Below, piece after piece: positions 26,028 to 59,177 of a DNA stretch of 64,000 nucleotides. The notes beneath the pieces are model-generated. The model ran no database searches. It had not been told where the DNA came from and worked only from the letters and a program-made list of their open reading frames with translations. How positions within the stretch are numbered: the first letter of the stretch is position 1; the number at the start of each line of letters is the position of its first letter. A program made the position numbers and the translations under genes. The DNA comes from Sphyrna mokarran (Eukaryota). The DNA lies in NCBI GenBank assembly GCA_024679065.1, contig JAGIQG010000040.1:496001-560000 (forward strand). The letters run 5' to 3'.

Positions 26028-26033
26028 TTTATT
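26028..26033 (-). terminator. candidate polyadenylation signal of the PARP14-like gene
   Basis: AATAAA (minus) at the end of a ~250-nt unique UTR-like stretch. Implies a ~2.4-kb 3' UTR containing CR1 and SINE insertions. Confidence 0.45.
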
Positions 26034-26274
26034 GAGACACTAACATGAACACACTGACACATTTCACCAGGTTAACATCACTGAACTCGCAATATTTCAT
26101 CAGCGCCTCTCTGCGGACAACCTCGAATCTTAACGGTTTTATACACAACGCATCATTCCCGCTTGCGACGGGCTTCAAGGTGCGATGGGGGGGTCTTCAG
26201 GCCTCCCGGTGGGGAGGAAAAGGGGAGGCGATGCATAGTCACTGGCAACAGTGGGTGTAGTGAGCAAAGAGAGG

Positions 26275-27480
26275 TTACCGCAGAATCCTAACAGTGCAAA
26301 GAAGGCCACTTGACTTACTGGGTCTGCACCAACTTTCCGAAACAGTGTCCCACTCAGGCCCTCTGACCCCATCCCATTGCTGTAACCCGTGTATTTAGCA
26401 AAACCAATCCACCCTAACCTACACATCTTTGGACACTAAGGGACAATTTAGCACGGCCAATCCACCCTAACCTACACATCTTTGGACACTAAGGGACAAT
26501 TTAACACGGCCAATCCACCCTAACCTGCACATCTTTGGACACTAAGGGACAATTTAGCACGGCCAATCCACCCTAACCTACACATCTTTGGACACTAAGG
26601 GACAATTTAGCACGGCCAATCCACCCTAACCTACACATCTTTGGACACTAAGGGACAATTTAGCACGGCCAATCCACCCTAACCTACACATCTTTGGACA
26701 CTAAGGGACAATTTAGCACGGCCAATCCACCCTAACCTGCACATCTTTGGACACTAAGGGACAATTTAGCACGGCCAATCCACCCTAACCTACACATCTT
26801 TGGACACTAAGGGACAATTTAGCACGGCCAATCCACCCTAACCTACACATCTTTGGACACTAAGGGACAATTTAGCACGGCCAATCCACCCTAACCTGCA
26901 CATCTTTGGACACTAGGGACAATTTAGCACGGCAATCACCCTAACCTCACATCTTGGACACAAAATTTACACGCCAATCCACCCTAACCTACACATCTTT
27001 GGACACTAAGGGACAATTTAGCACGGCCAATCCACCCTAACCTACACATCTTTGGACACTAAGGGACAATTTAGCACGGCCAATCCACCCTAACCTACAC
27101 ATCTTTGGACACTAAGGGACAATTTAGCACGGCCAAACCACCCTAACCTACACATCTTTGGACACTAAGGGACAATTTAGCACGGCCAATCCACCCTAAC
27201 CTACACATCTTTGGACACTAAGGGACAATTTAGCACGGCCAATCCACCCTAACCTAAACATCTTTGGACACTAAGGGACAATTTAACACGGCCAATCCAC
27301 CCTAACCTCCACATCTTTGGACACTAAGGGACAATTTAGCATGGCCAATCCACCCTAACCTGCACATCTTTGGACATTAAGGGGAATTTAGCACGGCCAA
27401 TCCATCCTAACCTGCACATCTTTGGACATTAAGGGGAATTTAGCACAGCCAATCCACCCTAACCTACACATCTTTGGACA
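26275..27480 (-). repeat. SINE-derived 53-bp array (~20 copies)
   Basis: Same unit as 20680-21940. Confidence 0.88.
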
Positions 27481-27514
27481 TGAAGATAGAAAGATAAATG
27501 ACAAATCAATAGAT

Positions 27515-28368
27515 TAATTGGACAGTGAAGAAAGTTATCTCCAATTGCAACGGGATCTTGATCAATTGGGCCAGTGGGCTGACGAATGGCAGATGGAGTT
27601 TAATTTAGATAAATGCGCAGTGATGCATTTTGGAGATTGAACCAGGGCAGGACTTACTCAGTTAATGGTAGGGCGTTGGGGGGAGAGTTACAGAACAGAG
27701 AGATCTCAGGGTACAGGTTCATAGCTCTTTGAAAGTGGAGTCACAGGTGGACAGATTGGTGAAGAAGGCATTCGGCAATGCTTGGTTTCATCGGTCAGAA
27801 CATTGAATCCAGGAGTTGGGGACGGTCTTGTTGAAGTTGTACAAGACATTGGGAAGGCCACACTTGGAATACTGTGTACAGTTCTGGTCATCCTATTATA
27901 GAAAGGATATTATTAAACTAGAAAGAGAGCAGGAAAAGATTTACTAGGGTGCTCAATAGGATTGAGTTATAAGGAGAGGCTGGGTAGACTGGGACTTTTT
28001 TCTCTGGAGCGTAGGAGGCTGAGGGGTGATCTTATAGAGGTCTATAAAATAATGAGGGGCACAGATCAGCGAGATAGTCAATATCTTTTCCCCCAAAGGT
28101 AGGGGAGTCTAAAACTAGAGGGTGTAGGTTTAAGGTGAGAGGGGAGAGGGTCCAGAGGGGTAATTTATTTACACAGAGGGTGGTGAGTGTCTGGAACGAG
28201 GTAGTAGTAGAGACGGGTACAATTTTGTCTTTTAAAAAGTGTTTAGACGGTTATATGGGTATAGAGGGATATGGGCCAAATGCGGGCAACTGGGTTAGCA
28301 AAGAGGTTAGAAAATAAGGACGGCTTGGAAAAGTTGGGCCGTAGGGCCTGTTTCCATGCTGTAAACCT
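27515..28368 (+). mobile_element. CR1-type LINE 3' fragment
   Basis: [26 protein letters not shown] and FTQRVVSVWNE remnants. Related copies lie at 14480-14965, 38100-39130 (-) and 49945-50365. Confidence 0.8.
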
Positions 28369-28416
28369 CAATAACTCGAATGGAATTGAGATTTTGTCTT
28401 GTTAAGGTGTGTAATT

Positions 28417-28997
28417 CTACTTGGAGCCAACCCGCGCGATCTTGAGAACCTCTTTCGTCTCGCTGACTGTGGCCTCATCGGTGACCAGGTTGACGAGGAA
28501 CGTGTAGCCCTGTGTTTGCACAACGGTCTCCCTCTCTCTCTTCTTGTAACACTGCTCCAACTCAAAGCTCGCCCATGGCTCAAAGCGCAACTCCTGCCCA
28601 CTCGCCGTGTAGCACCAACACACCCGGGGATACACCCGCTCCCACTCCCTCTGCACCGCCACTTCCAGCAGGCTGATGGCGGCACCCAGGGCCGACTCGA
28701 CGCCGACCCTCTCGCCCCACACCCTCACCCTCCCCTTCTCCAGCATCACGCGCACCCCGTGCTGGCGACCCAGCCGCAATATCCCGTCGGCCTCCTCCGC
28801 CGTCAGCGTGGCGGCGGAAGGGAAGGCGTGGGACGCCTCCGTGAAGTTCTCCTCTCGCACCCTCTGCAGCCCACGCAGAGCCTCCTTCACGCTCTCCTGG
28901 TCCCTCCCGAAGACGTTGATGATTGCCGGAGGCTCCTCCTGCTCGCTCTCGTGCTCTCGGGACAGTTCTTCCGCTGTCTCCGACCGCCTCCTTGGAC
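28417..28997 (-). CDS. PARP14-like terminal exon 13 (KH-like segment + WWE domain, ends KIARVGSK*)
   Basis: Acceptor ccttccccgcag|GT, 581 nt to TAG. WWE pattern WCY...FEPWASFELEQCY...YTFLVNL. The 13 exons total 3738 nt (1245 aa + stop). Confidence 0.88.
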
Positions 28998-58640: not shown

Positions 58641-58655
58641 TCCCAGTTTCTTGCC

Positions 58656-58757
58656 TTTCAATTTCGACTCAGCAGAAATGAGACTAAGACACATTCTGTA
58701 CAGTGAATGCTGCTCCCTCTCTCTCTCTCACACACACGGTCGGTTTACTTTCACTTT
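58656..58757 (-). promoter_or_regulatory. two further IRF/ISRE-like sites at the start of intron 1
   Basis: AAAGTGAAAGT (58747-58757) and GAAATTGAAA (58656-58665) on the minus strand. Confidence 0.55.
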
Positions 58758-58914
58758 GTACATTCTCTCTCCCTCTCTCTCTCTCTCTGCAGCACGGTAA
58801 AGTTTGGAGAAAGAAGCTTTAACTTCACAAAGGGCGAGTGGAGATCCCTCCTTTAACTTTGCGGGAATCAGATCTTCGTTTCCATCTCCACCCCCTCTCT
58901 CCCCCCCCTCTCAC

Positions 58915-59086
58915 CTTCTCTTTCGACGAAGCTGACAGTAAAAGTATTCTTGCTGAGCTGCTTAACTTGACAATCCCCTCCGGCAGATTTCCTGCGGACG
59001 GTGAAGTATCTCTGTAGATGTTTTTCCAGCTTCCCATCTCCTGGCCCAGGGATATCCACCAGCACTGGGAACAGTTCCTGGCTCAT
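58915..59086 (-). CDS. PARP14-like gene exon 1 (RRM1 N-part; MSQELFPVLVDIPG...RRKSAGGDCQV...VSFVERE)
   Basis: ATG at 59086, 172 nt, donor GAAG|GTGAGA (phase 1). FPxLV...LQxYF...KSxGGxCxV is the PARP14/PARP10/DTX3L-type N-terminal RRM motif. Confidence 0.85.
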
Positions 59087-59141
59087 CTCTGCTCCCGAGG
59101 TCTCTCTGCCTTCCCCAACTCTCTCTGTCTGCCTGAGTTGG

Positions 59142-59177
59142 CTTTCACTTTCACAACTGTCCTCTGTTTCCAGTTCC
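59142..59177 (-). promoter_or_regulatory. IRF-E/ISRE in the proximal promoter of the PARP14-like gene
   Basis: TGAAAGTGAAAG (minus, 59142-59153), 56 nt upstream of the ATG; GGAACTGGAAAC just upstream. Confidence 0.7.

Follow-up and report, generated by a model that had tools for sequence, protein, structure and literature searches.

Among the PARPs, PARP14 is described as unique in combining the writing and the erasing of ADP-ribose (PMC13224862, available excerpt). The activity of macrodomain 1 (macro1) is tied to an Asn or Ser and a Gly in loop 1, together with a hydrophobic and an aromatic residue in loop 2, and losses of macro1 have been published for mammals (PMC10221186, available excerpt). 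In humans, the macro1 of PARP9 removes mono-ADP-ribose written by PARP14, and DTX3L binds mainly the transferase (ART) domain of PARP14 (PMC11251020, available excerpt). ZAP-S, the short isoform of PARP13, is interferon-induced and has no PARP domain (PMC11414379, available excerpt). Human PARP9 and ZAP-S are precedents for an ART-inactive and an ART-less PARP. The gene described here represents a natural, long-lived separation of writing and erasing, in which a predicted eraser was kept and the writer dropped, with an intact writer gene in the same genome. This loss runs in the direction opposite to the mammalian losses of macro1. As far as its available text describes, the survey in PMC10221186 removed sequences without a complete PARP domain, so that ART-less genes were filtered out.

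The window is a 64-kb stretch of the genome of Sphyrna mokarran (G000:C994:496001-560000), and the gene lies on its minus strand. Twelve exons, all with GT-AG introns, are joined to 3,699 nt encoding 1232 aa with no internal stops. An earlier note on this DNA had counted 13 exons and about 1245 aa, which has to be revised accordingly. A 13th coding exon, with candidates near 37890 and 48370, is unneeded in comparison with the orthologues, and tblastn of the Mustelus protein leaves no room for it; the 12 exons account for the Mustelus orthologue except for a deletion of ~100 aa inside exon 4. The features are as follows.

59141..59152, minus strand: IRF-E/ISRE-type motif, 55 bp upstream of the ATG, the sole strict match in 64 kb
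58915..59086, minus strand: coding part of exon 1 (ATG 59086), first half of RRM1 (Pfam PF23222, E 3e-9)
54946..55067, minus strand: exon 2, remainder of RRM1 (68% to Mustelus)
52503..52533, minus strand: exon 3, a 31-nt linker alignable with Mustelus and Heterodontus
45571..47303, minus strand: exon 4, KH-like array and macro1; ~100 aa fewer than Mustelus after aa 147, in frame
45679..46197, minus strand: macrodomain 1, predicted hydrolase (N501, G509, I605, F606)
42821..43060, minus strand: exon 5, first half of macro2 with a degenerate loop 1
39803..40003, minus strand: exon 6, second half of macro2 with a loop-2 deletion
36030..36090, minus strand: exon 7, linker
34386..34523, minus strand: exon 8, start of macro3
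32591..32650, minus strand: exon 9, macro3
31028..31204, minus strand: exon 10, macro3
30099..30281, minus strand: exon 11, end of macro3 (spliced contig 14 of run X2, 0 mismatches)
28417..28997, minus strand: coding part of exon 12, with KH-like region, WWE (about 28420-28638) and stop
28417..28419, minus strand: TAG stop, at the position of the WWE/ART intron in canonical PARP14
28265..28416, minus strand: 3' UTR, extent as given by the X2 contig, which ends in a repeat
26028..26033, minus strand: candidate poly(A) signal AATAAA, one of four

The core observation of the earlier note, an intact spliced gene that ends after WWE and has no ART, is confirmed, and its interpretation of the gene is partly supported. 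The exons are in frame and the reading frame closes in TAG directly after WWE, as had been stated. The AATAAA named in the note does exist and is a candidate only, as four sites of the AATAAA/ATTAAA type, this one included, lie downstream of the stop before the next gene begins. In Pfam, RRM1 and macro score above the cut-off, and WWE falls below its curated cut-off. The predicted fold of the last exon, which is single-copy in the assembly, has a mean pLDDT of 90 and PARP14 WWE as its best structural match. Its final predicted strand ends two residues before the stop, and the predicted WWE is complete.

The reported absence of ART exons before the next gene was reproduced. Nine ART queries, searched on both strands of the window and of 184 kb around the gene, gave only chance matches (best E 0.17, on the wrong strand), and all nine matched the canonical PARP14 locus with E 3e-25 or better as a positive control. 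The 184-kb search covers all but 1,666 N bases, 1,434 of which fall at 24150-25997 downstream of the gene, where six N blocks sit within a CA/CT simple-repeat tract. Genome-wide, none of the 26 matches to PF00644 lies in or beside the window, the nearest being 1.15 Mb away. The closest orthologous ART, that of Heptranchias, has 14 matches in the genome, again none in or beside the window; the best of them, on contig C113, was considered as a displaced ART and rejected, as it is the last exon of canonical PARP14.

The PF00644 matches nearest to the window read like PARP2, a name which we take from their motifs. These PARP2-like catalytic exons lie at G000:C994:1703167-1713237 (minus strand), and the last exon occurs twice, 1.6 kb apart, reflecting either a duplication or an assembly repeat. 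Two further ART-like matches, at C113:76787088-76787507 and C771:23219051-23219464, contain five internal stops each and are possible PARP pseudogenes.

Transcript evidence at the stop comes from one of four runs. Run X2, which is presumed to be RNA and is RNA-like, was informative, and X23, X3, and X16 yielded repeats only, with no useful coverage of the coding bases at the stop; the raw reads of X23 also left the coding bases beside the stop uncovered. A contig of X2 (2,446 nt, depth 60) aligns to 28265-28995 and 30097-30285, with 0 mismatches and no gap over 920 nt, and includes the TAG and 152 nt beyond. Since it skips the last intron and spans the stop, the transcript is spliced and the TAG is transcribed. 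The two weak GT sites, from which the earlier note had considered splicing past the TAG, are both crossed unspliced. Contigs drop rare isoforms, and the X2 contig leaves room for minor ones. Nonsense-mediated decay is not expected, because the stop is located in the last exon.

The same ending, which the earlier note had suggested looking for in other sharks, is found in Mustelus (1340 aa) and Heterodontus (1368 and 1369 aa, both isoforms), whose models end after WWE and contain no PF00644. The more distant sharks Heptranchias and Pristiophorus retain an ART. Among 31 ART-bearing rows, only these two are without the Gly after the catalytic His, the aromatic residue at the stacking position, the Ala after YF, and the Tyr of YS, each of which is present in 29 of 31; a conserved donor-loop Arg is changed in both of them as well as in a third row. 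The four absent residues are taken here to belong to the NAD pocket. From these changes, the ART of Heptranchias and Pristiophorus is predicted to be a pseudo-ART with a degenerate NAD pocket. A degenerate ART in two sharks and none in three suggests that the writer was likely inactivated first and deleted later. The Pristiophorus orthologue carries three tandem WWE copies.

The origin of the stop can be traced at the exon boundary. In the canonical PARP14 of the same genome, a phase-1 intron follows the WWE exon and would give Gly-Lys if read through. At those intron codons, Mustelus and Heterodontus have Lys followed by a stop, and the Sphyrna gene, which has lost 3 aa just before, closes in the same way and has no GT where the ancestral phase-1 donor would lie. 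The stop would most simply have arisen by reading through a dead donor. The gene would have arisen by a duplication before the split of sharks and bony fish, the ART pocket would then have been inactivated in a shark ancestor, and the ART exons would have been lost before Heterodontus and Mustelus diverged. After this loss, the frame would run into the old intron and meet a stop two codons on.

ART-less database models alone are weak evidence, because four non-shark models in the tree (two lungfish, Gymnothorax, and Dallia) also have no ART, and two of them end at about the same WWE exon end. In the two lungfish models and the moray model, the ART may have been lost independently or the annotation may be wrong. 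The Mustelus model, which lies on a 369-kb scaffold, could likewise be explained by annotation read-through. More generally, the missing ART might be an artefact or belong to a minor isoform, with ART exons hidden under the N blocks or absent from the assembly and spliced in some transcripts. The 1,434 N bases would offer room for small exons, the assembly repeats show read errors, and similar shortened models occur in other fish annotations. This explanation is nevertheless very improbable, as the X2 contig, of depth 60, shows no splicing at either weak GT site and runs on through the TAG, the ancestral donor position has no GT, the N blocks fall within simple repeats, and the Heterodontus gene, which is placed on a 59-Mb scaffold, has its end at the corresponding position.

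The relation to PARP14 was analysed with a quick tree of 39 proteins, hand-picked from about 310 fetched proteins, using the KH-macro-WWE region, a midpoint root and no bootstrap. It separates 19 rows, in which canonical PARP14 (among them the gene on C113) is joined by amphioxus and lamprey, from a second clade of 20 rows (SH-aLRT 100), which holds sharks, three lungfish copies, bichir, sturgeons, gar, bowfin, and teleosts, with the shark gene inside. Sphyrna, Mustelus, and Heterodontus form one branch (SH-aLRT 99), and the nearest row to the Sphyrna gene is Mustelus asterias (71%). No tetrapod row falls into the second clade among the 39 hand-picked rows, which for that reason does not imply a loss in tetrapods. 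A single clade of all seven cartilaginous-fish rows is rejected (p-AU 1e-34), which places the duplication before the split of sharks and bony fish. The gene is thus, judged by sequence, an ancient paralogue in a second, jawed-vertebrate-wide PARP14 clade. The canonical PARP14 of the same genome is located on C113, complete with its own ART and with PARP9 adjoining. The gene in the window is neither in the canonical group nor linked to PARP9, a role filled by the C113 gene. A clipped copy of an ordinary PARP14 is ruled out, as canonical PARP14 is intact on C113 and the gene belongs to a separate clade. The gene has three tandem macrodomains followed by KH and WWE, as in canonical PARP14, and the model and its orthologues contain only RRM1, versus three RRMs in the canonical protein. 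The earlier description as a PARP14 paralogue that dropped its writer therefore holds with regard to the ART-less paralogue; it missed the age of the clade and that the ART was probably inactive before it was lost.

These results point to a second PARP14 clade across fishes. No description of it or of an ART-less shark PARP14 was found in the literature covered, most subscription journals lying outside that coverage; members of the clade, or this locus, may be listed among the sequences of PMC10221186 or in table S1 of PMC12227049.

The macrodomains differ in their predicted activity. All four hydrolase residues named in the available text of PMC10221186 are present in macro1 (N501, G509, I605, and F606), and its best matches are the macro1 of human PARP9 and PARP14, so that the hydrolase-type assignment of the earlier note stands at the residue level. 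It is the most conserved domain among the ART-less sharks, with an identity to Mustelus of 142/172 versus 616/888 elsewhere (p 4e-4) and to Heterodontus of 110/172 versus 396/870. This conservation is no sign of a new role, as macro1 was already the most conserved domain before the ART was lost.

Macro2 had been proposed as an ADP-ribose reader, which its loops do not support. The loop-1 Gly, present in 19/19 canonical and outgroup rows, occurs in 0/20 rows of the second clade and is Ser703 here, at a position presumably equivalent to human G1044. Loop 2 has lost 5-6 residues in the ART-less sharks and is also shortened in Pristiophorus. Without the loop-1 Gly and with a short loop 2, macro2 is probably unable to bind ADP-ribose. 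Macro3 retains the motifs for binding, namely the Asp of GDI (D879), N890, the loop-1 G900, and the loop-2 G977 and G979, and looks like a reader at the motif level, as had been predicted.

The pattern of conservation bears on two other explanations. The protein might have no catalytic function and serve the interferon response by binding RNA or as a scaffold, similar to ZAP-S; its RRM and KH domains would then carry the function, and the macrodomains would only bind ADP-ribose or act as a decoy. RRM1 and the KH regions are 69-73% identical to Mustelus, and roles of this kind are described for ZAP-S, an interferon-induced isoform without a PARP domain (PMC11414379, available excerpt). However, constraint is strongest in macro1, where no hydrolase residue is lost, and the KH array is the very part being deleted, making a scaffold unlikely. 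The first KH region is shortened in frame in Scyliorhinus, Mustelus and, most of all, Sphyrna, as read from the assembly. The long shark branch and this stepwise KH loss also fit relaxed selection, which counts against the eraser reading. Taken further, the gene could be a slowly decaying paralogue, open and transcribed yet under weak selection and of no important function; the long branches, the KH deletions, the degenerate macro2, a WWE below the Pfam cut-off, and an ART that decayed before it was lost would all agree with this. Such decay is improbable in view of a frame that stays open over 1232-1369 aa in three shark lineages, which split about 200 million years ago, indels that are all in frame, and uneven conservation that peaks in macro1.

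The label "interferon-inducible" given in the earlier note rests on one promoter motif and on family precedent. Shuffling gives an expectation of 0.11 strict IRF-E matches in 64 kb, where one is found, and the chance of a strict match within 200 bp is about 3e-4, a post hoc figure. A looser IRF pattern is not enriched in the 64 kb (3 found versus 2.09 expected). These counts use a presumed IRF-E/ISRE consensus. A similar loose IRF-type motif lies near the ATG of canonical PARP14.

The gene sits between an IgH-type cluster and a VJ-C gene, with IPO4 beyond the latter. The IgH-type cluster is located at G000:C994:586093-611875 (plus strand), 26 kb beyond the window, and comprises VH, five C domains and a secretory tail, with an IgW-like reading. 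The gene at 20124-16221 of the window (minus strand) consists of a leader exon, a V exon to which a J-like FGxG motif is joined, and a single C1 exon that terminates after Cys, and reads as a germline-joined, light-chain-like VJ-C gene. The first coding exon of an importin-4-like gene, which we take to be IPO4 by its sequence, lies at ~6830-6910 of the window (minus strand), and a downstream exon at G000:C994:464129. Long tandem arrays with a unit of ~53 bp occupy 20700-23800 and 26430-27470 of the window; indel-rich copies near 26920-26990 suggest local read errors. The neighbourhood agrees with the antigen-receptor region of sharks that shows synteny to human chromosome 14 (PMC12227049); the main text of that source mentions neither PARP nor IPO4.

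Taken together, the gene is best read as an intact, spliced PARP14 gene of the second clade that has no transferase and likely encodes an interferon-induced ADP-ribose eraser, with a probability of about 0.6. IRF factors would switch the gene on, and macro3, perhaps with the RRM/KH region, would bring the protein to mono-ADP-ribosylated proteins or RNA. The targets would be mono-ADP-ribosylation made by canonical PARP14 and related PARPs, from which macro1 would then remove the tag. Interferon-induced ADP-ribosylation would thereby be damped or reset, as with human PARP9.

The PARP9 of Sphyrna mokarran is located at C113:60091044-60124330 (plus strand), next to canonical PARP14, and contains a pseudo-ART and a macro1 without the loop-2 hydrophobic-aromatic pair. 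This macro1 is predicted to be hydrolase-dead, and the role of the eraser would thus be vacant, as a motif-level prediction from one genome. Human DTX3L is linked to PARP9 and PARP14. In the shark genome, a single DTX3L-type KH match, accompanied by a DTC domain, was found, at C1:59648037-59652392 (minus strand), on a contig apart from PARP9 and PARP14. As the contact of human DTX3L is mainly on the ART, an ART-less protein may be cut off from the DTX3L complex, and DTX3L binding by the shark protein is doubtful. It is tentatively conceivable that in galeomorph sharks, an old second PARP14 became a dedicated, stand-alone, interferon-induced eraser, a host counterpart of viral Mac1 that replaces a PARP9 with a macro1 predicted to be dead, after a two-step loss of the writer. 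If this is true, that loss is recorded in the series from bony fish, where the ART is intact, through two sharks with a pseudo-ART to three sharks with none.

In comparison with known systems, the gene shares with canonical PARP14 the order RRM-KH-macro1-macro2-macro3-KH-WWE, the hydrolase residues of macro1, an IRF-type motif upstream of the ATG, and, with the canonical gene of the same genome, the codon at which the WWE exon ends. It differs in having no ART, a single RRM, a shortened KH array, a degenerate macro2 pocket, and a separate contig; its identity to the canonical protein of the same genome is 40% in macro1 and 14-35% elsewhere. The RefSeq entries XP_078060925.1 (Mustelus asterias) and XP_067870237.1 (Heterodontus francisci), automatically named "PARP14-like", are orthologues and likewise ART-less, and the Sphyrna gene is about 100 aa shorter than these in the KH region. 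ZAP-S is also a PARP-family protein without a PARP domain, formed via an intronic end (PMC11414379, available excerpt), but it derives, as an isoform, from a gene in which the domain is retained, and it carries zinc fingers and no macrodomains, whereas in the shark gene ART exons were not found at the locus. The likeness to PARP9 would lie in an active macro1, no active writer, and the damping of PARP14-dependent ADP-ribosylation (PMC11251020, available excerpt). PARP9, however, has two macrodomains and an inactive ART that binds DTX3L, whereas the shark gene has three macrodomains, an RRM, and no ART, and PARP9 is a separate gene on C113. The gene therefore appears to be a conserved, ART-less PARP14 paralogue that is neither canonical PARP14 nor PARP9 and is predicted to work in a PARP9-like manner.
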